In this document: positions 1-59,099 of the stretch, in pieces | Layout: each line of letters opens with the position of its first letter | Position numbering within the stretch: position 1 is the first letter of the stretch | NCBI GenBank assembly: GCA_036172245.1 | Contig: JAYWIR010000003.1 | Coordinates: 7,316,001-7,380,000 of the forward strand | DNA from: Raillietiella orientalis | Taxonomy: Eukaryota | Reading direction: 5' to 3' | Length of the DNA stretch: 64,000 bases | Notes under the pieces: model-generated | Database searches by the model: none | What the model was told of the DNA's origin: nothing | Seen by the model: the letters and a program-made list of their open reading frames with translations, nothing else | Position numbers and translations under genes: made by a program

Positions 1-1816
1 CAGCGTTCAGAGTATCCGTACTTGGAGCAGAACTGCGGAAAGAGACTCAGGCTTCACAAATTAGGAGTTTTTAGAGCACTCCGCCGCAGCTTGACGGCGG
101 AAATAACAACTCACTAAACGACGGCATTTCAGCTGCTAGTGGAGGTTCGCGCCTGTTCCGCGTATACACCACGCTTATTAAAGGCGCTTCCCTAATTACA
201 GCCCCTCTGCACACTGACGGAGATTTGGTTAGCGATCGTTCTTACGACTATCAGTTTGCTTAATGCGGACAGCATCCGCCCAGAGGCTCTTTGCAAACCA
301 CGTCGGCAACGCCGTAAAGCCGGGCACTTCCGAACCGCCATCGAAATACCGAATCGGCATCCGTAAATGAGCGCGAACTTAATTTTCTTTCGAGTTTTCC
401 TGGATTGTTCAAGGACCCGCTTCCAGGCAATCGAAGGACACTGTTTTCGGCGGCGAAGGAGATGCTGCAAGATGCAGGATATGCACGCGTTCCGCAGGAG
501 CCGCGCCATGTTGAGGCGGAAATGCGTCTTCCGCGTAGCAATCGCGGTTGGCGGACGCGCCGCTGGAGGGCGAAGCTCGCCCCTTCTGGCGCCGTTCCCG
601 TGGCACGGATCCCTGCGTTCTGCCGTCCCCCTCTGCCTGGCCACCTATCTCATTTCGGATGTGGTTCGACCACATCGTTCCTGCAAACAGCCGCTCTCAC
701 TCACACGCCCCGGTATTCTCATTCCCGGGTCCCGATGGGTTGGCTGAAGAGCTTCACGGTGGGCCGCCGACTCCGCTCGCGCTCCTGCGATCGGGGAAAC
801 GGCATTGGATGAGAAGGGTGCAAGGTGACGATGCGGGAGGAAGCGGAGGATGAAGGGGAGGAGAGGGGGGGGGGGAAGGCAAACCGGCCAGCCTGCGAGG
901 GAGGTGCAGCGGAAGTAGTCATCGAGGAATTGCGGGAAGCAGCACAGGCGGCGGCGAGCTCCTCGGCGTGTCGGCAGCCGCGCGGGAAGGCGAGACTGCT
1001 CGGCGGCGAAAGAGCTGCGCGCGAATGCGTGTGAGGAAGAAGAAAAAGAGGAGGGAAGGGAGGAAGGCGGGTGGACGTCCAAGGCCAAGGCACCAAGCAT
1101 CTGCACCAGCTCCCCGCCCGGCGGCGGACTGCCTGCCGAGCGGGAAGGACGCTGCTGGGACCGCAGACCCCTCTCTCCGGGTGATGGCAGCTCCATGGGA
1201 ACGGCTAAGGGACGCAGCACCCTGAGGTCAAACACAGCATCCCGTTTGCCTCTCCTATTGTGGCCCGCGCGCCCTACGCTCCGTTGAGCACGGAAGGAGG
1301 GATCGCGTAAACCGGAAGCGCCCCCTTTGCTGGTTACCTGCGCTCCACGGACGGACCGGGGTTACGAGGAGGGCCACATCCACGCCGATGCTGGAAGGAG
1401 GGGGGGACAGAGGCCTGTCAGGATGGCAGCGGAGTTTCCGGGTCGATGAGGCGCAGCCCGGAAGCAGGCCGAGATCTTCTGCGTCATTTCCGGCGCTCCT
1501 CCCTTTGTTCCCTTCTGGAGGAGCGGGTGCTCCCGCCACAGTTTCCCGTTCCGACCTTCCCTTGTCACCTCCTCCCCAAACGGGCCGCCGAGGGTGCCTC
1601 CGGCCTCCTCTTCCTCTCACGTGCCGGGAGCTCCCCGCCATGGCAACCGCTGGGGATCCCGGGAACTCCCTCGCTGCCTCCGCGCGCCTACGCGAGTCTC
1701 CGGTCGCGAGCGTGGGCGAAGCGGGTGCGGGCGGCGCTCTCTCTCTTTCCTCCTCGCTTCCACCCCACTCCTCCTTTTCGCTCCCAGATTCCTGCCTCCA
1801 TTTCCTCGTCTTTCAG

Positions 1817-4800
1817 GTGTCGGGTACAGCATCTGCATCATGAATTTCCACACGGCCCTCTACTATAACACCATCATCTCTTGGGCGCTCTACTACTTCC
1901 TGTCTTCCTTCCGCCGGGAGCTTCCGTGGACTACCTGCGGGAACGCCTGGAACACGCCCAACTGCACGATGATCGAGGACGTGGTTAACGTCTCCGACTA
2001 TATCAGCATGACTACCCCCGCCCAGGAGTTCTTCGAGTGAGTCGGCGGTGGCGGCAGTGCATGCCCTGCGCGACGACCCCTCCCGGGCACGACGATGTTC
2101 CCTCCGGAAAGGGTCTGCGTGCCACCGGAGGGGCCGCCGCCTGCCCTGTGCGGCGGCAACCGCGGGCCCCCCTCTCTCCGAGGCCCGTACTGGCGAGGGA
2201 GGGTCCGTGCCTCTGCAGTGTAGGAGAGGGCGCCGGGTCGCGTGCCTGCTCGCGGCGCCCTTCCTCCTTCCTCCCCGAGGGTGGGTTTTTTGGGCGCGCC
2301 TGCGGCGTTTCCCCCTCAAGGACCGCTCGCCCGCAGGCGCAGCGTGCTGGAGATGCACCGATCGAACGGAATGGAAGACGTGGGCCCGGTCAAGTGGTCT
2401 CTGGCCCTCTGCCTGCTAACCATCTTCCTCATCGTCTACTTCTCCATCTGGAAAGGGGTGAAGAGCACAGGAAAGGTAGGCAAGAGGGTACCTCACTCCC
2501 ACCTTTCGCCCTCACCTCATCCGCCGCTCCTTCCCCTCTCTCCCTCGGGCTGCGCGGAGGAAGGGCGGCAGCTGCCCATGCTCCTATTGTAGGCCGTCTG
2601 GATCACGGCCCTCGCCCCCTACGTTGTGCTGAGCATCCTGCTGGTCCGCGGCGTGACCCTTCCCGGGTCGGGCATCGGGATACGTTTCTACCTGGAGCCG
2701 AAGTGGGAGAAGCTGGCCACGCTCGAAGTCCGTGCTCGCTGGCAGGCGGGGGGAAGGGCGGGGAGGGGGGGACAGGGGGCCTCCGAGGACATCGCTCCCC
2801 GCCGCTCTCCCCCTCCCGCAGGTGTGGACAGACGCCGCGGCGCAGATCTTCTTCTCCCTGGGGCCGGGATTCGGAACCCTGCTGACCCTATCCAGCTACA
2901 ATAAGTTCCACAACAACTGCTACAGGTAAGCCCACGGGGGGAGGGAGCCCGCCTTACCACTCCCTTCCCTCCCCAGGGACGCGATCCTCACCAGCAGCAT
3001 CAATTGCCTGACCAGCTTCCTGTCAGGGTTCGTCATCTTCTCCGTGCTGGGGTACATGGCCCACATGCAGCACAGGAGCATCGAGGAGGTCGCCGAGGAA
3101 GGTGGGTAGCCACCGTGCGCGCCCTTCCCGGAGGGCCTCGGAAACTAGCCAGCTGTCTCCCCTTTCTCCCCTTTTTCCGCGAGGTGGCGGAGGGGCAAGG
3201 ATGGGCGCGCGACGAGCCGGCGCCGCCGCGCCGGGGAGCGTTGATTCCTGTCCCCCTCCCCTTCCCACCTGCGGTAACTGTGGGGGAGGGAGCAGCCATC
3301 GCAGCCTACTGCACCCCCAAGACTTGCTTGCGGGGGGAGGGAGGCCCCACGACGGAAAAGCGCCTGAGGAAGGAGGGAGCTCTTTCCTCCAGTACCCGTG
3401 GCGTCAGGTCAGGTGGGCGTGGACGGTGAGAAGGAAGAAGGGCGGGGTCCACGCGCGCTTCTTCAGCGTGGCGGCTTGCGGGCCCGTAGGGGAGGGAGCG
3501 CGGGCCACAGAGCGGCTCAACCGGCGACCGGGCCGCCTCACCCATAGTTCTGCTTGAGAAGGAAACAGCCCAAGGAGAGACTTGAGGATCCTCGACCTCG
3601 GCTGCTCCGGCTGGCTGCCATCCAGGGGCAGAAGACAGAGAGACAGATCCGGGGGGTCTCTTTCATCACTCTCCCCTGGCTTGGGAGACATCCAGGGATC
3701 CCTGTGGGAAGGAGGAGAGGCTGCGAAAAGGAGGACGGCGGGAGATGCCGAATTCCTCCCGGCGGTCTGGCGGAACTGCCTGGGGCCCATGTTACGGGGC
3801 AGCGTCATCCTCCGGGACTTCCTGGACGACGACAGGCTGGCAGCTGATGGGCGTCCCTCTGCCACCAGCTGCCTGCCTGCCCCATGCCGAGCGCTGTCGC
3901 GAAGGTGAATGGCCCCTGCGTGCGTGAAGGGGAGGAGGAGGTGCTGCCCCCTCCGCTCCTCCCAGGGAGCACCGCCGCCTCCTCGGCTGCTGGGGTCGAT
4001 GTTCACGTGTCCCTCATGCGGGACGCCCCCCAAGTCCGCCAGAGTGCGCTCTCTGACCCGGTCGGGATGATCGTTCCAAGGCAGCGGCCTCCGCCGGCGA
4101 TCCGACCCGTGTAGTACGAGCTCCCTTCCTCCGTCCGAAGCATCCCCTGGCGGCAGGTGTCTTTCTGGGTGCGACATCCCGTGTTCTCCCCGGGAAGAGG
4201 GAAAGACCACCCCCTCTAGGGTGAACTTTTTCCCGGGAAAGGAGGAGTGGCGGCGGTGACGCGCGTGTCTTCCTTTCAGGACCGGGACTGGTGTTCGTCG
4301 TGTACCCTGAGGCCATCGCTACGATGAAGGGGTCCGTCTTCTGGTCAGCAGTCTTCTTCTTCATGCTCATCACCCTCGGTAAGCGGGCTGTAGGGCAGGG
4401 AGGGGATGCCTCCTCTTCCCCCCCACTGACCTTTTCCCTCGACGCTGCCCCATTGGGCACTCCGGTGCTCCGGGATGCCCAGTGGGGGAGGAGACCCAGT
4501 CTGGCCAGCCAATACCACCCCAAGCCCTGAGTGTCCAGCCCGAGGGTATCCATCCGTCCGACCCTTTAAATAGAGGCAGCAGAAGGGACTGCGAGGTGGG
4601 AGGGTCGTCCCTCCCTCTCCTCCCGTCTCCCGACGTCCTTTCCACCGTTATGCTCGGCCCTTGCTGTTCCACTCTCTCCTTCCCTTCTCTCTCTCCCTGC
4701 AGGGCTCGACAGCACCTTCGGGGGCCTGGAGGCCGTCATCACTGGGATGTGCGACGAGTACCCAAAACTCCTGGGGAGACGCCGGGAGGCCTTCGTTGGG

Positions 4801-5800
4801 GCGTTCATAATCCTCATCTACGTCTGCGCCCTGCCCACCACCACCTACGTGAGTTCCCCTGAGCGGGGCACGGGGGTGGCCGGGGCGGGTTGCGGAGACG
4901 CGCTGACATTTGACCCGTGTCCTTCCAGGGAGGCCTCTACCTGGTTACTCTGCTCAACGAGTACGGCCCCAGCATCTCCATCCTGTTCGTGGTCTTCATC
5001 GAGGCCATCGGCGTGTCCTGGTTCTATGGTGTTTTCCGCTTCGCTGAAGACATCCGCAAGATGCACGGATGCAGGCCGGGGTGGTTCTGGATAATCTGCT
5101 GGTCCTTCGTCTCTCCCATGTTCATCTTCGTAAGCTCCTTCTCCTCTCCTCCCTCCCCGATCCCTGCCGCCGGCGCGCCACAGTCATCCACCTCCCCTTT
5201 GTCTTGCAGTTCATCTTCGTGTGCACCCTCCTCTTCAAACCCGTCTTGACCCAGGGCAGCTACACCTTCCCCGACTGGGCCAACAACGTTGGCTGGGCCC
5301 TGACCGCGTCGTCTCTGATCTTCATCCCCACCTACATGCTCTACTCTCTGGCAGCAGCTCCTGGGAGGAGCTTCCTGGAAGTGAGTGCTCCCGCCGCTGG
5401 CGCTGATCCTTCGGCCCCCAGGGCAACCCCGCCCCCTTCGTGAGCCCCGCCTGCTCCCCGACTTCCTCGGCTCCGGGACCGCCACCGTCGATGCGGCAGG
5501 AGGAGGAGGACGGGAGACGCAGCAAGAGGCAAGGCGAAGGGAAGGGAGCAGGAAAAGCACATCCCCGGCCGCACCTCTATGCACCCAGCTGGGTTCGGGG
5601 AGCGTCCGGGGGGTGCCCCCCGTGCTCCCGACGTCAGAACCCCGCTCTCTTCTTTCCACTGCTGCCACTTCTTGCCTGCTACCTCCTTCCAGAAGCTGAA
5701 AGTATCCACGAAGCCCCGCCGCTCCTTCCGCCCTGCGCCCGCGGAGGAGGTCGTCGCCCTCAACTCGGTCGCCGACCCTACCCTCTCGACCGCCGTATGA
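1817..5800 (+). CDS. SerT: SLC6 sodium:neurotransmitter symporter, serotonin-transporter-like (5'-partial; TM1-TM2 exons not found in window)
   Basis: Ten phase-consistent GT-AG exons: 1817-2036, 2337-2475, 2593-2727, 2822-2925, 2977-3101, 4280-4378, 4703-4848, 4929-5129, 5210-5380, 5693-5800 (stop). Motifs: [101 protein letters not shown] (typical of invertebrate SERT). Exact orthology within the monoamine transporters is inferred. Confidence 0.92.
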
Positions 5801-21522: not shown

Positions 21523-22444
21523 AGTGATTTCTTGATCATTCTCCAGCTCTTCTGTAGAGACATAGAGGCAACAGTTTGCAACATTCCTCACCTTGAAATC
21601 AGCCAAATATGAAATCCGACACATTCAACACATCAGGGATGCCCACTTCGACACAAGGTGTGCATGGGCTGTCACAGAGAGTCACAGTCTATCTTAATTC
21701 CAAAATGTTCCTCTTAGTTCACTAATCTGAGAATCTGTGAACAGAGATCCCTGAAAGTCAAATTCAAAACGCGTGATGTGCGTCTCAAATGTCATCTCCA
21801 TGATTGATTATAAAAGATATCCGCAAAACGAGCGTTCCAACATTATCTAATATCAATGTATGAAAACCAAAATATTCTGTTGAAAGTAAAAATCTTCGAT
21901 ATTTTATGACATTTTCCCACCGGGCAACTCCAGCGTGCATCTTCACGTGAAGCACGGGAATGATAATGGATGAAAGGAACAAAACACATGGAAAAATAGA
22001 CTGCCCTGGTTTGATGAATATTGGAGGTAAGTTAATAAGGGCAAAGGACCACATGAATTCGTTTAATGAAAATACAGACTCTATTTCCGTCGTACAATGT
22101 ACACTTAGTCGAATACGAATAAACAACTTTTGCCCATGCTATGAGTCGAATTCCTGAGGGCTCGAAGGCAGTTTGTAACTGAGAATCTCCAAATGATCCG
22201 ATGGTCGACATGTATGAGCAGAAATTATTGCACAGCATCAACTGGAAAGTCTTCCTTTTTCACAATTCCAGGTATTTCACAGTACTTCTGTAGGAGCTCC
22301 GTGATGTGACCGGGAAAATATTTCATTTATTTCGTGATACTGTTGGCACTGGTGGTCAGATGCAGATGTGTTGAAAATATGAGAGCAATGAGCGTACGGT
22401 TCTGATTTGAGTTTCATTTTCAATAATTTCATCCCGTTTAATTT

Positions 22445-24906
<2,462 letters not shown>

Positions 24907-32800: not shown

Positions 32801-33999
32801 AAGAGAGGCAGCAGGAACAAAGATTCTCGTGGGAAACCCTGGTTCGCTGCCTCCTCAGGAGACCTGGCGAGCCTCGCAGGGGCGCTTTCGCGCCCACGGT
32901 GCGCTGCCGCGCTCCATCTGTCCCGCCGAGCGAGGCCTCCGTCCGCACTCTGCCAACGGGGCCCGTGGCAGCGAAAACTCGCGGAATGAACCGAGGCCGA
33001 TAAGATGGGACCTCAAAGATAATGCGAAGGGACCTTGTAGGTTGCCAAAACAAAGGTTCTGGGGCTGCACACAACAGCTGATGCCGTGTACAGCTCCAGG
33101 ACCTCAGTGCAGGAGTATTCCGGAACGAAAACCCAGCCTTCTCCGCCCTGTGAGTCCTGCAAGTCTTCTCTGCCCGGGATCTACGCGCTGCCCTTGCCGC
33201 CGCCGAGTTCTAGCAACAGCTCTGATCACGCTTTGGCAGCACGCGATGAGGAAGGAGGGAGGGAGGGAGGGAGACTCTGGCGCAGGCGCGCTGGGGCCAT
33301 GTCGCAAGCATCGTTCCCTTTTTTTTTTGTCTTTCTCGGTTCCTTACTTTATCGCGGGTGCGCTTTCAAGGCGCGAGCGAGTGGGAGTGATGCAACATCG
33401 CTATCGCCATATCCGATAACGTACTGCTCGCACGAAAGTCGAGGAAGGAGGACGGAAGGGAAGATCGACTTGCGCGCGGAGTCACCTCCCTCATCCGAAA
33501 TGGTCCAGGGGGGCGTCCGGCGGAGACCGTAGACGGAAATGAATGTCGCTGTTGCGCAGAAGTCGGTGCTCGTCCGAGTTGCGTGGCCGGGAGGCCGGTG
33601 GGCAGCGCCCGTAAGCGGTTACGGGTGACTGCTGCCTGGAAGCGAGCAGGAGGCCAATCCACGGCGGCGGTGACGCACCTTGCGTGGGCAGGGAGGGAGG
33701 GAAGTAGACGGGGAAGGGGAAGAGAATCGGCACTGATGCCGCTTAACGCACGGAGTAGCGCAAGCGCACGTGGGGCGCCCCGGAAACCCGTGTGGGCAGC
33801 AGCAACAGCCACATGCGTAGGGGTGGCGGCGGGCGACCATGCCTCGGCCCACTGCTTGCCCCCTGAAATTCTCTTCCGGCTGCAAACAGAGGATCTTGCG
33901 GGTTTGGGGGTCCCGCACGCCAGTCGGGGCCTGGAAGTGGGTTGGACAGGATGACGAGGGCAGGCGGTGGGCACGGAAGAATGAAAGCGCTGGAAGAGA

Positions 34000-36900
34000 A
34001 TGACGACGTGGGTAGCGGAGGTGGACCGCAAAGCCGGGCACAGGTAAGTACACCGTGCAGCGTGAGATCGAGCGAAAGAAGTGGACCGCGAATCGCGGAT
34101 CACGTGGAAGGACGGGACGGAGGCTGAAGATGGTGTGTTGGAGGTGGCGCGCGTGGCAGAAGGTGGACGCATGATAACGAGAATGCACGTCTACTTTCGA
34201 GATACGAGGACAGAAGTGAAGACAGAAGTGGACATGGATTGCCCAGGGGAAAGGGGTAGGCAGTGGTGGGGAACGGAGGAGAGCGGAGCAGCAGCCGCGG
34301 GTCAGTCAGGAAGGGAGCGCGTGCGCGGGTGTTGCCGGGTGACGCGACGGCGCGTGGTGTGCTGCGGAGGTCTGAGCCCACCACTCATCGGTCCTCTTTC
34401 TCTTCCTTCCTCTTCCTGCAATCAGGTTCCAGCACTCGAGGTGGCAGACCGTGGTGGTGGTGGTGGCCATGATGGCCTGCTGCCTGGTGATATCGGTGAC
34501 CCTTGGTCTCGGCGTGTCCCGGATCCGCGACCGCGACCTGCAGTACCAGGAGTTCAAGCAGATGTTTTCGAAGAATCCCTCTCCCCTCAAGAAGTTCTCG
34601 AGAGCCGCCGTCAGCGGGGACGCCGGCGCATGCGTGGACACAGCGAAGTAAAAACATGACCTGGCGTCGGAAGTCGCCATCTTCCTCACTTTCTCCTTCT
34701 CCCCTTCTCATCCACCTCCTTCTTGCACATCCTTCGTTTCTTTCGCTTATTCTCCCTCGCCCCTCCCCCCTCCGGTCTTGCTTGCTTCCCCTACACCTTC
34801 CTACTCACAGTTCCATCCTGGAAGAGGGAGGCAATGCGGTGGACGCCACTGTGGCCGGACTTCTGTGCAGCGGCTTGGAGAACCCTCACCTCAGCGGGCT
34901 AGGAGGTGGCCTGCTGATGGTCATCTACAACCGCAAGGAAAAGAAGGCGGTCGTCCTGGACGCCCTCGAGAGCGCCCCGTTAACCATTAGCGAGACCAGC
35001 CTCCAGAAGAACTGCAGCATCTGGAAAGGTGCGTGCACGAGCGCGCTTGCATCCCAGCTTCCTCCGGCTGCAGAGAGCTCCCCCCAATAGGGGTCAGCAG
35101 CAGCCGCGCCTCTCGGACTGCCCCGCCTGTGTCCCCTACCTTCGTCCGCTCCGTGCCGCGGGGACGCCCGCACCGCCAGGCAGTCGCACGTGCGCGCGGC
35201 GGCAGGGTCGGCTAGACGTCCTGATGGGGGTAGTGAGGTCACCGTGCCCTTCACTGCCCTCCCAGCTGCTCACAGGAAAAGCTCTGCCCTCCCGATGATG
35301 CCGCGGAGGCGCACAGGTTACCGCCGTAATTTATCCACGCAGGTCCCCTGAACATCGCGGTGCCCGGTCTGGTTAAAGGCCTCTGGGAGGCCCACCGGAA
35401 GTTCGGAAAGCTGCCATGGGAGCGTCTAGTCTCCCCCTCCGTCTCCATGTGCGAACAAGGGGTGGTTGTAGGCGATCGCCTGTCCAAGGCGCTCGCCCAT
35501 GGCTTGCTCAAGGACTCTTCGGGAAACCTCAGGCAAGTTCTCTCCCACCCGCCTCACTCGGGAGAGCTGCCTCTCCTCTCTGAGGACCGGAGCATGCCCG
35601 GAGGGTACCTTCCTGGCAAGTTCCTTCCTCTTTCAAGGGAGACCCTTCGTCTTTCCCCTATTCGTCGGAGAGTTCCCATGGGGACCAGCGGGAGTTCGTA
35701 GGCCCAGCACTGCGCAGCAAGGGCAGTCCTCGGAGCCCTTCCGGGGCATCCGGTAGTCCCCAGTAGTCGGCTAATCCTTGGTCTACGTGAGCGCTTCCTG
35801 TTTCTCTCCGGAAGCTGCCTCTCTTCCTTTCCGTCCTGACCCGTTCCTCCTCTCCGAGCTGACCACCATCTGTAAGCTAACTCCGTCTTCTCCCCAGAGC
35901 ACTTTTCCTGAGCAACGGAACGCAAAAGATGCTGTCTCAAGGAAACCGCATTTTTTTCCCGAGGATGGCTGCCACCCTGCGGAGCATCGCCGCCAGGGGC
36001 GCGGACGCGTTCTACACGGGAAACGTCGCCGACAAGCTGCTGTCGGACCTGAAACTCAGCGGGTCCCAAATCAGCCGTGGGGACCTGGAAGGCTACAGGT
36101 TTGCCCGCCTCGCGTCCAAGAGAGGAAGAAAGAGAGGAACAGCAGGGGATTCCTGAGGACACAGGGAAAGAGGGGAGGTGGGAAATCGGTTCGCTTTCTC
36201 CGCCGAGCGAACGGGAGCATCTCCCGTATCTGCACTGGTTCCCGGGCAGCGAGCTCTAAGGGAGCACTTCATTGCTCCCCTTTCGAGAAGAGGGGGCTTT
36301 GTCCCGGGGGATCTACAGGAAAATGGAGGTGGATGGCCCCTGCGGAGTAGGAAAGGTGACGGCTGGAGAAGGCGTTCCTATTCTCCAGCGGGTGGTGCAG
36401 GAGACCAGGAGCGGAATGGGCGATGGAGAGACGGAAGGGAAAAAGGATGAAGATGAAGTGCAGTTGCTCCAGATGTTGGTGGCGGCGGCGAGAAAGACGG
36501 CTTTAGTGAAGAGGAAGAGGTGGAAGAGTGGAAGAGAGGAAAAAGAAAGACGTCCAGGAAAAACCCGAGAGGCTGATTCCAGGTGCCCTTTTGTGATCTC
36601 TTCCTTCCAACCGTGGTCTGAGGCTGAGAAACAATCTTGAAAAACCCATGGAGCGAATCTGAGCACGAAAAATCTGGAGTGACGTAAGGGGTCGGGATGA
36701 CCTCACTCACGTCGCCACCACCGTTCCGGTGGTCCATTCGCCCGACTCCGAAGGAATGAATTTTTTTCCTCCATGGAGAACGGCTGAACCTGGAGCTCTC
36801 GGGGGTGCAGGTAGCCTTCCAATGGAGCTTCTCCATCCGTCTCACGCTCCCGAAAGCGCTCTCCGGAATCCGTCCTCTCATTCTTTCTCTCAGGTCTCCT

Positions 36901-39900
36901 CCTTCTCCCCTCTCGCGCATCATGTCTGTAAGGAACAGCCGTCTCGATTCCAGGGCAGTGTGGCGGGAGCCGATCAGGGTCAACTTCCAAGAGCTGACCA
37001 TGTTTGCCCCTCCTTCCCCGGGCAGCGGCGCTGTGCTGGCCTTCGCCCTGTCCATGTTCTCCAAATACTGCAGACGAGAGGAGTTTGCCAGCAGCCGTCT
37101 GGAAGAGCTCGTAGACCAGTTCGTCCTGTACTACCACCGGCTCTCCGAAGTTCTCAAGTTCGCTTACGCCCAGAGGACGTTCCTGGGAGATCCCGACTTT
37201 TCGCAGATACCACAGGTGAGAGGAGCTCACAGGAGCAGCAGCCGCCGCCACGGGGACAGTCCTCTTCCAGGAAATCGAGAAGAAGCTCGCCGATGACGAT
37301 TTCCTGGCCGAGCAAGAGAGGAAAATCAGCGACTCGCAGACCTTTGACCCTGCGTACTACATGCTGAACTTCTCCCAGCCGGAAGACGGGGAAAAGTCGA
37401 TCCTGACAGTTCTAGATGAAGAAGGGAACGCGGTGTCCGCCGTCTCCAGCCTGTACCTGCTGTAAGTGGCCTTCCCAGGACCTGCAGAGCCATCGGAACC
37501 AGAGGTCAGAGCCGCTCTGGCACATCAGATAGTGAAGCGCGTAGGCGTTTCACCGACACTCCGAGTAAGCGGCGCGACCCGGCACGGCCTCTGGCATGCG
37601 ACCCGAACCGCACGGATCGCGCGCCAGCTACGCTCTTTGCACTCTGCCGTTGCTGCGCTCCGGGAGGCTACCGCATAGTCAGCACCTCCCAAGATTCCCT
37701 TCCGGAGACGGCTGGGACCCCTCGCGACGCCGTCGTCACCCTTGAAACGGAAGTACGGACGTGTCCTTTCGCAGCAAAAGGATTTCGCTTCTGGAGATTT
37801 GACCTTTAGTAAAGGATCGGGTCTGCTCCGTCCAGGCGATCCTCCGTTTCCACCCTCCACCTCCGACCTCCTCGCCTCCACTTCTTCCGGATCTTCCTCT
37901 GAAGGACTCTCGTAAATTCCATTTGCTCGACAAGCTTCCTTCCTGCCTGCTGCTCGACACACAGGCGTCCTGACGAACTCACTCTGTAGCTGCTGCGAAT
38001 CCCGCGAGCCGACGACTTTCGTCCTTGAGGAGAAGATGTCCGTCCGGAAGGACGAATTCAGGCAGAAGATGAAGAGGCCAGGAAAAAAGAAGGAACAATG
38101 CCAGAAATGCGCACAGAGCACTTCGAGGGCGCCCCCGGAGAGATAGCGGCAAGAGAGACTGAGCTGGTGAGTGGTGGTCGCTGGGTGCTTCCGTAGCGCC
38201 AACGGGACGTCACACGATACCGGGAAAGGAAGGCACCAAGCTCTGCCGCGAAGGAAGGAGGAGCGGAGGAAGGAAATCCTTCCATGGGAGCTCGCTCTTT
38301 GACACGTAGCGTGCTCCGTGCACACCCTTGGCTCCCTCCAGTGACTCCGTCTCGGGATCGAGCTCCAACCAGGCCAAACCCGCGCATCCAGACTCGGAAA
38401 TCGCAGAGCTATTCTTTTACACACCAACGTCCGCGCGCTGAAAATAAGCGCCCGATCCTCTTCCTCCCCCCAGATGCGTCCGGAGCGCTCCAGCACCAGG
38501 CGGCCAGAGCGAACCGAGGCCAGAAGAGCCGACTTAAGGAGCAGGCGCTGGTGCTCCCGCCCTTCCTCTTCCTGAGAATTCTCTTGCTCCCCCTCTGTAA
38601 CCAGCATTGCTTTCCGGCCGCGGTCCTTTGCCAATCCCCTCTCCCCCGGCCGGTAAAGACGTTTAGAGATTCCCGCTTGTCCTGCCTTGTGCACGGGCAA
38701 TATCGTAGGCGAGGACGCGTGCGGAGCCGCAATTCTTGCCAGTTCAAAACTCCCCCCGGCCAGCCTTGCAGCCTCCCATTACTCCCTTTCCTTCCCCTTC
38801 CGAATCGGCAGACAGGAAGTTCACGAAGGGAGGGCGTAGAGGAAACCCCTGTCATTTTCGTGCTGAACCTCGTCCTCCTGCCAGCCTTCCTTTTCCAGAC
38901 CGGGCAAGATATGGTACTCTCCCTCCACCGGGATATTGCTGAGCAGCAGGATGCTGACCTTCTCGGATGCCCTGGGGAAGAGGAGCTACTCCCCGAGTCC
39001 CAATAACTACATGGCTCCGGGAAAGCGACCTTTGTCTTCTGCTTGCCCGGTGGTGTACGTGGACGGCGAAGGGGAGGTTCGATTCGTAGCGGCCTCCTCC
39101 GCAGGGACTGAGAGCATCGCGGACGTGGCCCAGGTGCGTGCGTGCTTGCGCGCGCGCGAGAGGGGGAACCCCTGGAGCGGCTGGAGGGCGCTTGGGTGAG
39201 TGCGACGTCGTGTAGGCGGTGGTGGTGGAGAGGTGGTAGGGAACCTGCGTTCCCGAGATAAGCACCCTTCCCTAAGATTCGTCCGTCCCCATCGGGCCGG
39301 TTCCGTATCCCATCCGCCGCTCTTCTTGCACCCTTTCTGGACCTGGAGGTCGCGGTTCTCCAAGCAGATCTTCTGCGTGGTCGCGGCTGCCGTTCCCGCA
39401 CGGAACTCTCTCGCGAGAGGGCGGCATTAGAAGGGCGAAACTTCACGCAGATGTCCTGCTTTCCCCCTTGGATCCGCTTCCCTCTCGCTGGGGTGGGAGA
39501 GCGCCTCACTCGCGGAGCAAAGGAGTCTGCGAATGTCATGGAAATGTAAGGGAAGGAGGAAGAAGGAAGGGAGGAAGAAGACGTTGAGCACCTTTGGTTG
39601 ACTTCCCGCTTTGCGCGCGTAGCCGGAAAGCCAATGAACTGCACTTCCCTCCGTGCCGAAAGATACCAGTAAGCTCCGGAGAGGAGGTTACCAGGTAACG
39701 AGAGCAGGACCCTCAGGCAGAAAACGAACGCTTCCGCACATCGTCTTCGTCCGCGAACTCCTTGTCCTCCGCCACTCCGAACTGCTTCCCGGCGGGTCAT
39801 CTTCTGCGAATGAGCAAAACCCGAAAAACTGCCCTCCATTCGCTGGTAGGCTCCTCCCGCACGACAGCGACCGGGACACTTTCATTCTCCCCTTCGACGA

Positions 39901-41265
39901 CAGGAGGAGAGAAAAACTTCATCCGGGGCGCCTTTTGGACCAAAATGCGGGAGGTAAACGGGGTATCTTCGCTCCGAGAGCTCTTCGCTGACTTCCCTCT
40001 CGGCGCCGCAGGGAGACTTGGAACTGTCCCAGACTGTTGCCAGTGCGACTGCGGCGCAAGGCTGCGTCAGGACGGACGCACGCCGGGACACGCGCGCCTC
40101 ATGCAGTGCTAGGGGGAGGGAATGTCAGGTGGGCTGCTGCGCTACCCTTGGAGAACGCTTGTAAATACAAGCTGGAACAGATAAGTGAACGGGGACCGGG
40201 AAATGTCTTGGGAGCTGGGCCGGTTTGCGTGCGGCGAAGGGGTCATGATGACCGTCCGCGAGTGAGGTGGCACAATGCCTCACAAGAGGGAAAAGATGTC
40301 CGAGGTACGAGGGAGTTACGAAGCTCTGCAGAGACCGCGCGTCCAGCAGCCGAGTATCCGCTCATCGCTCGAGCAGCGAAGAGGACGTCGACCGGGGGCT
40401 GCTACCGACCCGGTGGACGACGACGGCCGTACTTGAGCGCGGCCTCAGCTCCCTCCACCTGCCGGTAGCAGCGCGCGCGTCGGTGCCTCGCGCATCGCCC
40501 ACGGCGAACGCACGGCAAACGCGTAGGACGGGATTTTCTCCCAGATGTCCCCATAGCGTCCGTCCTGTTCTTTTTCCCGGAATCCTCTTCCTTGCTCCTG
40601 AGCGCACCTCTCCTTCGGGAACGGCTCGTGATTTATCTGCACCCTCCTTCCAGCTGTCTATCTTGAGGATGTGCTACGGAACGGATCTCAGGAAGGCCAT
40701 CGACACTCCGGTGATCCGTCAGCATCTGGACCCCATCGGTCTGCGATACGAGAGGAAGCTGTGGACCGTGAGTGCATGCTCGAACGCTACCGGCACGACC
40801 GCCTCCGCGTCCCACGCGCAGCTCGGGGGCGGGGTCGCGAGGAAGCCCCAACGTCCTGCCGGCCGTGCACTCCCAGGACTCTTCCCGGAGCTGGAGCTGG
40901 CGGGAAGGGAGAGAGAGAGAAGAAAAACTTTCTTCATCCCTTCCTTGCGCGCTTGCATTTAGAGGAGTCCGGGGGCCGCTTCCGAAGGAGGCGGGAAACA
41001 AGAAAGAAGAAGATTCCTCCCTGCGCTTCCTCTTGCGGTTTTGCCGCGGAGGTGCGTGTTGCCCGAGGACGCGCGGCGGACTTCCTTCCACCTTCTTCTT
41101 TCTATCCTCCAGGAGATCGTCAAGGGACTGACCAAGAAGGGTCACAACTTATCCGAGGATCCCGCTCACCTTTTTGGCGGAACGTGCAGCATCCTGAAGG
41201 TGGACTCCTCGCATATCTGGGCAGCTTCAGATGCAAGACTTGGTGGGCATGTCTCCGGCATGTGA
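34000..41265 (+). CDS. Gamma-glutamyltranspeptidase (glutathione hydrolase)-family type II membrane protein, 609 aa, predicted catalytically inactive
   Basis: Ten phase-consistent exons: 34000-34043, 34426-34647, 34811-35028, 35343-35532 (GC donor), 35898-36098, 36954-37215, 37271-37461, 38899-39133, 40654-40767, 41113-41265; total 1830 nt with no internal stop. N-terminal TM anchor; ILEEGGNAVDA, SGLGGG, IAVPGLVKGLWEAHRKFGKLPW, FYTG, PPSPGSG, KFAYAQRTFLGDPDF, PGKRPLSS, AASDAR. The start exon is less certain than the rest. Confidence 0.92.
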
Positions 41266-42299
41266 GCCCAACCTTTCTCTCCACTCTTCCTGAAGGGAAG
41301 GGTCAGGAGTTTCTTACAATCCTGGTGGAATTACACGGCCAGGGTTCCTGGGCTAAGAAATGTTTACCGGTCACTTCTCGGGAAGGGAGGGAAAAAGAGC
41401 AAGTTCTTCGTGTTCCTCGCTCGCTTCTTCTCGCCCCTTCCCATCTGCTCCTGAAACGCGGACCGAAACTGCGACAGAAAATTCCCATCCTGTCGCTCCC
41501 TTCGCCGGCCGCTCCCTCACTCTTTTCTCCCGTCCTCCCGACTGCAGGCCTTTCTCTTGGATTTCCATCCCAGGAGGAGGCTGCGTTGCTAGTGAAAGGA
41601 GCATTAATCAGGAGAAAAGAAGGTAGAGAAGGGAGGGAAAGTAGAAGGAAGAGGATAAGGAGCTGTTGGATCCGACCTCGAGAAAGAGATCCAGCAGATG
41701 GAGGATTGTGCGCATGTGGCTTTGAGATGCGAGCAGGAGACGCCTTCCAACCCAGGTGACGCACCTTGAAAGGTGAAGTCGGGCCTGTTGCCAACGAACT
41801 TCCATCCAACCCTCCGGCCGGATGAAGAAGAAATTCAGAGCTCCCTGGCAGCTCCCGCGTCGCAGCAACCTCAGCGGAGCGCGAGACACTCGGTTGGCAC
41901 TCTTGACGACGGGAAGGCGCCTTCCTGGTCTTCGTTGGTCGCGTGACCAAAAGCAACTCTGGTTTCCTCCCAGACACTCGACAAGTCGAGCACAACTGTC
42001 GACAGCCCAGAGCCACCTGAGAGGTCATCGTATATGCCCTTGAGGCATTACCACGAAACGCGTTCTGCTGAGCTGGGAAAGAAGCATCTCTAGCGACTTG
42101 TCCGATCTTTTCTGACGCCTTCGAGGGTGACCCTAAAGAGTAGGCGTGTACGAAAGAGCCAGGTAACGCTGGCAAGGAAGGCAACGCCTAGGATACGGTC
42201 ATCGCCTCTTGCAACGAGAGTGGCAAAAAGCGATGAACTCGGATGATGGCATCACCAGTAGCGACAACGGCGGCGTAGAGGCCGTGGCGTCCTCGTCAT

Positions 42300-45200
42300 T
42301 CCGCAGTTCCGTAAGTGTCACCTGCACCACCGTCCTGCTGCCCGCCGATGCTAGAGACACACATGTTGCTGTGTCGCTGACCCCAGACGCAGGACTGGCA
42401 CTCAGCCCTTACCCTATGTGTCCTTTGCGCTGCTCACCGTGCGTTTTCCTGCAACCTTTCCCAACAGCGCCGCCGATCGTGCTTTCCCACCCGCACCACC
42501 TTGCCCACCGTTCTTTGCCCGGCAACGGACTGCGTCCCATTCTGAACCATAAGCCACCTGATCGACACTGGCAGCGCTTATTCTGTGGTACCCTCGTCTC
42601 GTTCGAGCCGCAACCTCGACACGCAGAGCTTTCTGCAGCGTTGGCCGATTTGTTGAGCGCACCCATGACTGGTCAGTCTGCCAACATGAACCTAACGCTT
42701 CGATCACCCTACTGCAAGGCAGAATCAAAGAGTCAGCCATCACCGTGGAGTTTCAGGCCACACAACTGGAACTCACTCTTGCTCCTCGTAGGCAGGCGCG
42801 AAGCGCTGCTGCTCTCGACACGGGTGTGTGGCGACGGGTGTGTAGCGCGGGAGACCGGTGGACGGGCTTCGTGCCGGCATGCTCACGAGACTCAGGGATA
42901 GGCAAGGGATCAGCCCGACCACCCGGACTGCTGGGCCAGCGGACATCATGAGGGCTCGCGCGTCAGTTAACGGTGAGTGAGGATTTTGCGATGACCGCCC
43001 TCGGGTGCGGACCTAGCAACCTCGGACTCGCGCTGCAATCACTCTGCGGCGGGAAGCGGAGTACAAGTCTTTCTACCCGCGACGCACGGATCCGCCATGG
43101 CGACGGCGCCGCAAGCATGCACTATGAAAGACTCGGCAGGAATGCGCGACCTACGCAGACGTCAGGCGTTCTTTCCATGCAGACGTCTTCATCTCCAGCA
43201 AGCCCTGGAGATAGAACTCCTCTTCTTCTTTTTCCTCCATCCCTATTGGAAGCTGCTCATCCTTACGTAAGGCATCATCCTAGTTGATCGCTCCTCCGTC
43301 GCAACCGGAAATCGTCGGAGCTCCTGGAATGAACTGTGGCGCGAATTCTTCTGGGACTCGAGCCTAGAATTCGAACCTTCTTAACTCCCTTCACGGAATA
43401 CCGCATCACAAACTCATCCGAGGTTGCGTCTCCATCGACACCTGGAAGCATCCAGACGACCATCTTCCATCGCGAGGGACTCTGATGAAAGCCCAGTCAT
43501 CCGCTGTGCTGCACACGTCGTCAGCCTCATATGACCCCTGGGCGTCCGCGTAAAGGAAAGGTCACCGGGGATCTCGCCCATCCGTAGTGAGCAGGGCGAC
43601 TACCTTCCAAGGGGGTGGGGATTTCTCCTCCCTATACGAACTCCAAGACGAGTCCATGGAATAAAAAGGGCCAAGAAATACCAGTTGTGCAATCATATGC
43701 AATGGTCACCCACGCTGAAACAGCTCATGAATTTCGTCACAGCTCCTATCGATGAAGGACAGCAGATTTCCTTACTCGGCGCTTACTGTGAAAGACCGCG
43801 CGAATCACCCACTTCCCCATCCTCCCAACGGTTTCCACCTCCCTGCAGAGTGGATGGGATTCTGCTCCTCCCTCGAACTGACTTGCGCACTCATTTGAAG
43901 ACCCTTTCTTTCCATTGTGCTTTGCGGCCAACGGTTGACCTGAGAAGCAGGTTTCGCCAAGAACCCTTCTTGAAGCTCTTGACTACACTTGGATCTACCT
44001 GCTTGTAACCCCAGTACAAGAAGAGTAGCTCCGTATGCCACCCGCTGAGCAGATGTTCCCAGAATCTCGAGCACCGCTAAATGTCGTGCTTCCTGTTCCA
44101 AGGTCATCTGAGGGACCTGCTGGTTCGGCATCACCGATCCGATCCGCATCCTGATGCTCTCCTCGAGAAGAGGACGCGATGAGTTGCAGCTTCGCTTTGC
44201 GAGGGTGGTCATGGCATCACAGCTGCGCACTAAACACGGATTTTCTTCCGCGTTCAACACCCTTCGGAACGCAGCTGGCTTTCTTTTTCTTCCTCCACGC
44301 GCAGCATCGGCAGACTGAGTCTTCTAAGACAACTGTCCTCCCTGTAGAAAGGTCTTCGCTTATTCTGCTGATCTTTCTTCGGCCACTGATGTCCGTAGGA
44401 ATCATGTGGTCCCGAGGAACAGTACAGGAGCGCTCTTTTCTATCCAATACTCCAGCAGAGAGTCCCTAGGAAGCTAAGTAAGAACTTGACGAAGCAGACC
44501 CGGGTCATCGCCTCGCCCCTCTCAGTGGTACCGTGCTTCTCATGAGCGAACATTTCAAAAGGCTAGAGGTTGTTGATCGGTTTACCAGCTAGTCAACTGT
44601 AGCCTTGAACTTTCCCTAGCGAGATTTCGAGACTGCTCAGCTGGCAGCATACGGAGCTGCTCTTCTTGCACTGGGGCCGCTAGCAGAACGAGCGCTGGCC
44701 TCTTTGAGCAAGAAGGAGTCTACCCCCGAAATGTGTGGCAGCGAAGGGGAGATCAGAATGCTGGAGGATAGCAGACCGCTCCGTCGTCGGACGGAGACGT
44801 AAGGAGGAGTTGCTCTTGTGCCTAGAGAACACCCCGTAAGAGCAGCTGAGGCTGTGCTTTAAAGCGAATGGAGCTCCGCCCGCCGACCCAGGCGTGTTGT
44901 GCCGCGTTCGAGCAGTGGTCCCTGCCTGCCACTCGGTTAGGAGGCTTCAGAATCTCAGGAAGATCAAGGAGGACCTTTGTACAGAAAAGAGGACTGATCT
45001 GTGTCGACGGAACTCGTCGCACCCTGCGCCATGGAGCTCAGATGTTGACTTCAAGCTGAACCTACGGGTTGATCGGAAGCTCTTGCAGCTCCATCAGGAG
45101 AAGCCGGTTGCACAGAAGCAGTTCTGCCACCGCGAAGAAGGGGCACCAGTCAGCGTTCGGCGATTCAGGAGGTGCACAGAAGGGACGGCCTCAGGTAATT

Positions 45201-53450: not shown

Positions 53451-53775
53451 TCAAAGAGTGAAAAGCAACAACGTAACAGGAAGAACTAGAATTGCGGGGG
53501 GAAACGGGAAGTAGGTCGAATCCATGTGCTGAAGAAGCCTCCCAGTCAGAGCCAGGCCAGGAAGAGTAAAAACAGCGAATTCACCAAATGAAGCGCCCCT
53601 CATTGTGTGAGAAAAGGAAAAGTGCACACGCGGTGTACTCGCACAAGAAAGCCAACCGCGTTTCAAAAAAAAATTAAATTAAGTGGCCTCCGAAAAGCAT
53701 CAGTGTCCCTTTAGGAAATCAGCAATGGTCAAAGAAAAAGATAAACTCTATAATTCGACAACTTCAATACACACT

Positions 53776-55825
<2,050 letters not shown>

Positions 55826-56671
55826 CTCGAACTTGTTGAAAGGGAACCCACGTGCACACTGTAGGGCTGCAAGGCGTGCGTGAACTGCACTATATTGAGA
55901 GAGTGGAGTGCTGGTCCCTTCCTGATTGCTTTTTATGGAAAGTCGTTGTATCTACGAGATTGGTCCTTATCTGTTTCTGTTTCGGCGTGTTTCCGATGGG
56001 AAAGTTCTCTGTCATGCTGAAACTCCGGGACGCAGTTCTCACGAGAATCAGTTCCACGAATGGCATCTGTCGGTTTCGCAGATGCTGCACCTCCTTGCAT
56101 TTTTCGTAGCCTTGATTTCGTGATGCGTCTTCACCTTTCGTGGAACTTCAGTCCTTCAGGTCTTCCACCTTCAGTCCTGCACTTTCAAGCAGAACGCCCG
56201 TGCGATAACTTCTCTTAGACCTCGGTTTATTCATTTGCTGGACTCTCAATTGGCTCGCTCTGTTGCACGCTTACTGGCATGTCTTTAGCACCAACTGTAG
56301 TAGCAGTTGACATGAAAATCTTCTCTACGGTTGAGAATTGAGGAAAAAGTACATGCAATAGGGGGTTATAGGGAGGCTCGCAGATAATCACTGAGCATTC
56401 CCAGAAAGGTTCGACAGCAGGCGCCCTGCTTCCGCTAAAGCAGCAGACGCGACTGTTTCGAAATATTGTGTCCTCTTTGCTGCCGCCTCGGCGAATTTAC
56501 TGCGGTGCATCAGCAACGAAACCAACAGGTGCCTTTTCGGGAACAAATTCCCGGAATCCACGCACAACAGTTAAGTCTCCCACAGGAAATACAAACAGAT
56601 AAGGACTAATCTGGGGGTTGCAACAATTTCTTTATATATGTGTCGGTCTGGAGGTTGCAGGGATTCCACTC

Positions 56672-56677: not shown

Positions 56678-56745
56678 TCCTGCAGTTCACGCACGCCTTG
56701 CTGGCCCTATAGTGTGCACGTGGGTTCCCTTTCAACAAGATCGAG

Positions 56746-58790
<2,045 letters not shown>

Positions 58791-58797
58791 CGTGGGA

Positions 58798-58803
58798 AAT
58801 AAA
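58798..58803 (+). terminator. Candidate polyadenylation signal for cathepsin-like copy B
   Basis: AATAAA beginning 8 nt after the stop codon, followed by a T-rich tract. Confidence 0.55.
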
Positions 58804-59099
58804 CTTTTCGTAGGAGGGATTACCTTTTTTTTGTATCAGCATTGGTGGTTTCCTGAAACCATGCTGAATGTCCTCTGAGACCACTTAATTTTGTACTTCC
58901 CCCCAAACTTGGTCGGTTCGCTTGTGCGGGAATACTCCATGAACTCCTATCCATGGCTGTCGCTATGAGGGAGCAGCTGCCATTGAAGTTGCTGAAGGCG
59001 ATGCTTTGACTCCTATTTGCCTCTGTATGATGGAGGATTTTGCTCCGTTCTCGCTCCCATATACTTCCTGGTTCCCATCGCTCTTCTTTTGTTCCGATA

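Follow-up and report, generated by a model that had tools for sequence, protein, structure and literature searches.

A 64,000-nucleotide window of Raillietiella orientalis DNA (GenBank assembly GCA_036172245.1, contig JAYWIR010000003.1, positions 7,316,001 to 7,380,000 of the forward strand) carries a ten-exon gene for a homologue of gamma-glutamyltransferase (GGT) in which Lys stands in place of the catalytic Thr and most of the residues that hold the gamma-glutamyl group are replaced. GGT is a textbook N-terminal-nucleophile enzyme. On balance we consider it probable that the gene encodes an uncleaved, catalytically dead type II membrane protein, a selected pseudoenzyme that has been kept for its fold. 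A pseudoenzyme is defined as a homologue which, by sequence, lacks the conserved catalytic motifs (PMC10211241), and an enzyme-family fold with the catalytic residues missing is what is found here. Judged by homology the protein is a member of family PF01019; judged by the features that define the enzyme, as read from the sequence, it is not a GGT.

Catalytic site, pocket and membrane anchor

The residue register was obtained from phmmer alignments to the chains of human GGT1 and from a MAFFT alignment with 24 full-length relatives, and all codon positions were confirmed by re-reading the DNA. In human GGT1 the nucleophile is Thr381, the oxyanion hole is formed by Gly473 and Gly474, the gamma-glutamyl group is bound by Ser451, Ser452, Arg107, Glu420, Asp423 and Asn401, and Lys562 binds the glycine carboxylate of the substrate (PMC7949050). 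The original prediction had given the same roles to Thr381, to Arg107, Asn401, Glu420 and Asp423 and to the glycine pair, in agreement with this source. Aligned with the human heavy chain 4z9o_A (phmmer expectation value, E=2e-13), exon 3 reads DALESAP where the enzyme has NAREVAP. The GGT chains in PDB are split at the cleavage site, and the light-chain side of exon 7 was therefore aligned separately; the piece at 37376-37459 gives a gapless alignment with the first residues of light chain 4gdx_B that sets a Lys against Thr381. This piece of 28 amino acids has E=0.28 when taken alone, its register being backed by the flanking exons and by the Pfam match. Exon 8, aligned with light chain 4gg2_B, has SSRMLTF for NNEMDDF and ASSAGT for GAAGGT, and keeps PLSS. 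The Thr to Lys change, the three altered motifs and the conserved PLSS had all been read from the DNA before, and both the alignments and the codons reproduce them. Exon 7 submitted whole matched only T-cell receptors in PDB, which are chance matches with no passing stretch.

The position that would become the first residue of the small subunit is occupied by Lys instead of the Thr of an active GGT (Table 1). Four of the six gamma-glutamyl binders are changed, to Leu, Tyr, Arg and Thr, the two Ser being kept. One of the two oxyanion-hole glycines is replaced, leaving Ala-Gly; the hole uses main-chain NH groups (PMC7949050), so that Ala at the position of Gly473 need not abolish it. Among the 22 full-length relatives that keep the Thr, which served as the canonical set, the columns of Thr381, Arg107 and Gly473 are invariant (22/22). 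With Glu420, Asp422, Asp423 and Arg107 lost, and a Lys and an Arg gained at the positions of Thr381 and Glu420, the net charge of the predicted pocket changes from acidic to basic; this earlier claim holds as a count of residues and as that only.

PF01019 (G_glu_transpept) matches six of the nine frame pieces submitted, with E from 3e-21 to 5e-9 and scores of 36-76 bits against a gathering cut-off of 27. The matched profile positions are colinear (2-84, 76-129, 142-206, 206-285, 286-350 and 356-430 of 512), bearing out the family assignment of the original prediction; the anchor exon and the pieces with the last two exons gave no PF01019 match on their own. Full-length blastp of the spliced model to its relatives gives E down to 5e-104, with relative P0064 aligned over residues 40-623, and the PDB matches carry the family name MEROPS T03. 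By homology, then, the predicted protein is a member of the GGT family PF01019.

The highest 19-residue hydropathy windows (Kyte-Doolittle 2.7) all fall at residues 37-59, TVVVVVAMMACCLVISVTLGLGV, in keeping with the transmembrane anchor proposed earlier. This is a single N-terminal hydrophobic anchor of 23 residues preceding the GGT domain, the architecture of membrane-bound animal GGTs, in which a type II layout with the anchor after a short N-terminus is usual. The protein contains four N-x-S/T sequons. Structural features that are kept include the Cys98/Cys122 pair, GLGGG, PLSS and a C-terminal D-x-R; the Cys98 column is Cys in 22 of the 24 relatives. An Arg-Gly-Asp tripeptide is encoded in exon 5 (36076-36084). 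Its Asp column is Asp in 24/24 relatives, and the same tripeptide occurs in relative P0001; it is probably a chance motif and no evidence for adhesion.

Without the Thr hydroxyl the precursor would be unable to cut itself and would stay a single chain. The Thr to Ala mutants of the E. coli (T391A), H. pylori (T380A) and B. licheniformis (T399A) enzymes, and the Thr to Cys mutant of the last (T399C), show no autoprocessing and no detectable activity (PMC8062742). In the E. coli precursor the core already has its mature backbone, and the P-segment, a C-terminal stretch of the large subunit, is placed near the active site in the position that the lid loop takes up later (PMC8062742); in the present protein this linker may likewise lie over the former active-site cleft. 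Since the contacts made by Arg107, Asp423, Glu420 and Asn401 are gone, the remodelled pocket would be unable to anchor a gamma-glutamyl substrate by its alpha-amino and alpha-carboxylate groups. Replacing Arg109 by Leu suffices to abolish transpeptidation, with about 5% of hydrolysis left (PMC8062742). The product is predicted to be made as a type II membrane glycoprotein, the rest of whose fold, going by the conservation pattern, would be under constraint and kept for a non-catalytic job; binding of a partner or ligand, or the escort or regulation of another membrane protein, would be a natural guess, nothing more. As for the original prediction of an uncleaved pseudoenzyme, the loss of the nucleophile, of four of six binders and of one oxyanion Gly stands, together with the retention of the rest of the fold; the lack of autocleavage, extrapolated from mutants of homologues, is probable, and the cell-surface location and the roles put forward there (receptor, adhesion, a different ligand) are conjectural.

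Relatives, pattern of change and other explanations

An exhaustive HMMER search with exon 3 against 1.84 billion cluster representatives gave 2564 matches at E<=0.001, and the spliced model was compared with the best 150 of these. Alignment and tree were built from the 24 proteins of 560-680 amino acids among the 150, the remaining 126 (fragments, fused or longer forms) being left out. For P0064, one of the nearest relatives, the closest Atlas clusters are arthropod "glutathione hydrolase 1 proenzyme-like" proteins, and an Atlas search with exon 8 returned only family-level, length-matched bacterial fragments. The top exon 3 match, P0001 (837 amino acids), shows a threefold repeat of the anchor and the beginning of the GGT domain, and ends short of the catalytic site; its high score is due to this repetition alone, and it is probably an artefact of gene modelling or assembly or a tandem partial duplication.

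Two of the 24 full-length relatives, P0054 and P0139, lack the Thr, and both have Gly in its place. Together with the window protein they make up three Thr-less rows, which do not group in the tree; they require a minimum of three changes, at least two of which are forced by well-supported branches. These rows also have the longest terminal branches of all, at 2.44, 1.89 and, for the GGT-like protein of the window, 1.66 substitutions per site (median 0.87), which is what a loss of catalytic constraint would lead one to expect. The tree comes from a quick search with support from the Shimodaira-Hasegawa-like approximate likelihood ratio test (SH-aLRT) only, in which long branches are hard to place. 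On this topology, animals have apparently lost the nucleophile while keeping the gene on more than one occasion.

The strongylid nematodes provide a second case. P0139, from Necator americanus, was examined with its eight closest strongylid relatives. All six strongylid orthologues that cover the nucleophile site (P0139, P0151, P0152, P0153, P0155 and P0156, from Necator, Cylicocyclus, Haemonchus, Nippostrongylus, Ancylostoma and Trichostrongylus) carry Gly in place of Thr and lack Arg107; their identity to P0139 is 49-68%. Another Ancylostoma entry (467 amino acids) has unrelated C-terminal sequence at the site, the Leu in its column being a forced alignment, and the Heligmosomoides entry has a gap there; in P0158, a relative from Parascaris, the Thr position holds Ser. 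The only annotations given to the Thr-less entries are hypothetical protein and gamma-glutamyltransferase. Like the window protein they are full-length PF01019 members with an N-terminal hydrophobic stretch, no Thr, no Arg107 and a degenerate pocket, and they are conserved across genera. They differ in having Gly with His383 kept, where the window protein has Lys and has lost His383, and they lie in another part of the tree, so that the loss would be independent. They are the best natural analogue of the window protein, supporting the pseudoenzyme reading by analogy while lowering its claim to uniqueness. A full-text search of one library found no literature describing a natural Thr-less GGT or these strongylid proteins.

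The pattern of change within the protein was examined at ten functional positions fixed beforehand from PMC7949050, with columns scored against the 22 Thr-keeping relatives. Where columns are at least 70% conserved, 7/10 functional positions are changed against about a quarter (35/138) of the others (Fisher one-sided p=0.006). Where they are at least 90% conserved, the figures are 5/8 against 13/63 (p=0.021), the other 50 of those 63 columns being unchanged. This points to a pocket that has changed several times faster than the rest of the protein.

Such a pattern bears on the possibility that the gene is a dying GGT duplicate, an unexpressed or near-neutral pseudogene that has not yet acquired a stop codon or frameshift, which we regard as unlikely. 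Neutral evolution for long enough to replace the pocket should have altered the remainder of the protein to the same degree and disrupted the frame; all 609 or 623 codons are open and the nine introns have usable splice sites, which argues against neutral decay. G+C at the three codon positions is 0.58/0.45/0.76, the third (GC3) standing well above the 0.60 of the gene's own introns, but this is a weak argument because GC3 in the neighbouring genes follows local G+C content (0.31-0.90).

Several observations count against a selected pseudoenzyme. The enrichment p-values are modest, and the key codon (AAG, one base from the Thr codon ACG) could by itself be a base-call error or polymorphism. 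The protein is fast-evolving in general: of 56 columns conserved to at least 90%, it has a deviating residue in 10 and most relatives in 0-5, which also fits relaxed constraint, and its terminal branch is longer than would be looked for in a fully constrained gene. No orthologue was found among the best 150 of the 2564 exon 3 matches, the closest full-length proteins having about 31-35% identity, 34-36% at best, and word-index searches of 5.8 billion sequences with exons 7 and 8 gave nothing at E<=0.001; these short queries are weak, yet a close orthologue would show. Neither AATAAA nor ATTAAA occurs in the 1.7 kb 3' of the stop codon (41266-43000). The departures, the branch, the lack of an orthologue in very large protein sets and the lack of a canonical poly(A) signal are at the same time the points in favour of a dying duplicate.

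The same residues speak to whether the protein could still be an enzyme of altered chemistry, with the adjacent Ser of Lys-Ser-Ile as a shifted nucleophile after cleavage one residue later, or with a non-gamma-glutamyl anionic substrate in the basic pocket. Ser451, Ser452 and Gly474 are indeed kept, Ser at the Thr position is found in nature in the nematode relative P0158, and the Ser mutants T380S and T399S are processed, late and with about 90% of activity lost (PMC8062742). GGT homologues of other chemistry also exist, for example with C-C cleavage in actinobacteria (PMC5519988). The Ser of the window protein, however, is at +1 and not at the nucleophile position, and canonical relatives also have Ser, Thr or Ala at +1; His383, which helps activate the Thr (PMC4568574), is Ile; Gly473 is Ala; and Arg107, Asn401, Glu420 and Asp423 are gone. 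We regard an active enzyme as very improbable.

That the assembly or gene model is at fault, a true transcript with another exon or base encoding a normal GGT, is extremely improbable: the nearness of AAG to ACG, the two in-frame alternative splice sites and the two possible start codons allow for it, but the other changed functional positions are spread over three different exons, a base-call error or polymorphism cannot account for these six changes or that of His383, the alternative splice choices leave them untouched, and tblastn with five canonical relatives hit the exons of the model, with one nucleophile-region match (37265-37459), and no second GGT locus in the 64 kb. An alternative exon 7 bearing the Thr, which would have told against the original prediction, was looked for in the window DNA and not found, and no canonical Thr-x-His motif occurs in any frame inside the gene.

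Gene structure and neighbouring genes

The gene runs from 33951 or 34000 to 41265, with an open spliced frame over its ten exons (Table 1). Splice junctions were deduced from phase, open frames and consensus, and the exons were joined by coordinates in a script. Starting at ATG 34000 and using the acceptor before 34426 gives 609 amino acids, so that the frame of this length put forward earlier is recovered; the first in-frame ATG, at 33951, combined with exon 2 from 34433 gives 623 amino acids, with ATG 34000 in the other frame. Eight of the nine introns are GT-AG and one is GC-AG (donor GCAAGT at 35533), and their sizes, in order, are 389, 163, 314, 365, 855, 55, 1437, 1520 and 345 nt. The GC-AG intron (35533-35897) and the 55-nt intron (37216-37270) are both required for frame and homology. 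Two in-frame alternatives are possible, a donor at 35605 (adding 24 amino acids) and an acceptor at 36893 (adding 20), neither of which touches the residues at issue.

Table 1. Exons of the GGT-like gene and residues at the positions of human GGT1 functional residues (window coordinates)
Feature	Position	Strand	Remarks
Exon 1	33951-34043	+	Short cytoplasmic N-terminus (predicted); donor CAG/GTAAGT at 34044
Exon 2	34433-34647 (from 34426 in the 609-residue model)	+	Membrane anchor 34448-34516; first Cys of conserved pair
Exon 3	34811-35028	+	Start of GGT domain; GLGGG; Arg107 position; Pfam E=3.2e-21
Exon 4	35343-35532	+	Pfam E=3.4e-16; ends at GC-AG intron; length fits relative P0007 (by eye)
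Exon 5	35898-36098	+	Pfam E=1.2e-13; matched by relatives in tblastn
Exon 6	36954-37215 (36894 start with alternative acceptor)	+	Pfam E=1.7e-13
Exon 7	37271-37461	+	Nucleophile position; Pfam E=4.7e-9; preceded by 55-nt intron
Exon 8	38899-39133	+	SSRMLTF 38942-38962, PLSS 39029-39040, ASSAGT 39092-39109; human light chain 4gg2_B E=3.5e-11
Exon 9	40654-40767	+	Within blastp alignment to P0064
Exon 10	41113-41265	+	C-terminal D-x-R kept; Lys562 position; stop TGA 41263-41265
Arg107 to Leu	34965-34967	+	CTC
Thr381 to Lys	37394-37396	+	AAG
His383 to Ile	37400-37402	+	
Thr399 to Ser			MAFFT alignment
Asn401 to Tyr	37454-37456	+	
Glu420 to Arg	within 38942-38962	+	In SSRMLTF
Asp422 to Leu	within 38942-38962	+	In SSRMLTF
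Asp423 to Thr	within 38942-38962	+	In SSRMLTF
Ser451 and Ser452 kept		+	MAFFT alignment
Gly473 to Ala	39101-39103	+	
Gly474 kept		+	Exon 8
Lys562 to Leu	41239-41241	+	

G+C content around the gene is 58-62%, and the gene contains one trivial tandem repeat only. The observed/expected ratio of CpG is 0.61-0.99 across the window in 4-kb bins, unlike a CpG-depleted, methylated genome of the vertebrate type. An Rfam scan of the window revealed no RNA family.

Other genes are present on either side. At 1450-5440 (plus strand) lie exons of an SNF/SLC6 sodium:neurotransmitter symporter, with five colinear open reading frame (ORF) pieces matching PF00209 and a GC3 of 0.81-0.90. Protein kinase exons at 22442-24316 (plus strand) cover PF00069 profile positions 3-220 over four pieces; they are situated in an AT-richer stretch (38-49% G+C, GC3 0.31-0.41), a sharp local change of composition within 64 kb. 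Two cathepsin L-like genes (I29 propeptide and Peptidase_C1) at 53735-55867 (minus strand) and 56704-58831 (plus strand) form a head-to-head inverted duplication, and an exon of one of them has matches to cathepsins K, S and L of animals and to insect fibroinase. The 5' parts of the two arms (1116 and 288 nt) are 92-94% alike and the 3' parts 78-79%, which suggests gene conversion or unequal divergence. The scan showed no Pfam-recognisable ORF of at least 70 amino acids in the stretches 24.4-33.9 kb and 41.3-50.3 kb, nor one of at least 110, the minimum length scanned there, in 50.3-53.7 kb.

Comparison with known GGTs and significance

With human GGT1 (glutathione hydrolase 1; PDB 4gg2, 4gdx and 4z9o) the window protein shares the fold family, colinear heavy and light parts, the N-terminal type II anchor, the Cys pair, GLGGG and PLSS. 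The human enzyme is self-cleaving and has Thr381, Arg107, Asn401, Glu420, Asp423, Gly473-Gly474 and Lys562, where the window protein has Lys, Leu, Tyr, Arg, Thr, Ala-Gly and Leu. Human GGT2 keeps the Thr. It is described as an uncleaved, inactive propeptide 94% identical to GGT1 (review PMC11173371, citing West et al. 2013), and resembles the window protein in being a GGT paralogue with an inactive, uncleaved precursor, a state that for the latter is predicted. Unlike GGT2, the window protein has lost the Thr and the pocket, and is at most about 35% identical to any relative found.

The third venom gamma-GT of Aphidius ervi (Colinet et al. 2014) is described as possibly non-functional, with active-site mutations (PMC4035087), and is thus another animal GGT duplicate with changes at the active site. 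It differs in being secreted in venom; the description given in that source does not state loss of the Thr, and a particular relationship to the window gene would be conjecture. The engineered mutants E. coli T391A (2e0w) and B. licheniformis T399A (4y23), chains of both of which are among the exon 8 matches in PDB, are likewise GGTs without the nucleophile, and are single-chain, folded, unprocessed and inactive (PMC8062742). In these the pocket is otherwise intact, whereas in the window protein it is remodelled as well. What is new here is the Thr to Lys change with a remodelled basic pocket; inactive enzyme paralogues are already known.

A wider conjecture, which we consider decidedly unlikely as it stands, is that Thr-less GGT-fold ectodomains are a class of pseudoenzymes on the animal cell surface that is under selection and has arisen repeatedly, with at least two independent origins (Lys here, Gly in the strongylids, perhaps also the P0054 lineage). 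They might serve as non-catalytic partners, for instance as subunits that escort or regulate membrane transporters or active GGTs. In that case the basic pocket would point to a new anionic ligand or to closure of the pocket. The heavy chains rBAT and 4F2hc, which are glycosidase-like type II proteins, serve amino-acid transporters in such a role.

A Thr-less GGT runs counter to the statement that all members of this family keep the Thr, but pseudoenzymes are common in most enzyme families. A naturally Thr-less and well-kept member, together with a nematode clade, would add GGT to the families with pseudoenzyme branches, and both would offer a natural, predictedly uncleaved precursor for studying the fold without catalysis. 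Genes of this kind go under the annotation gamma-glutamyltransferase and would lead to miscounts in reconstructions of glutathione metabolism.

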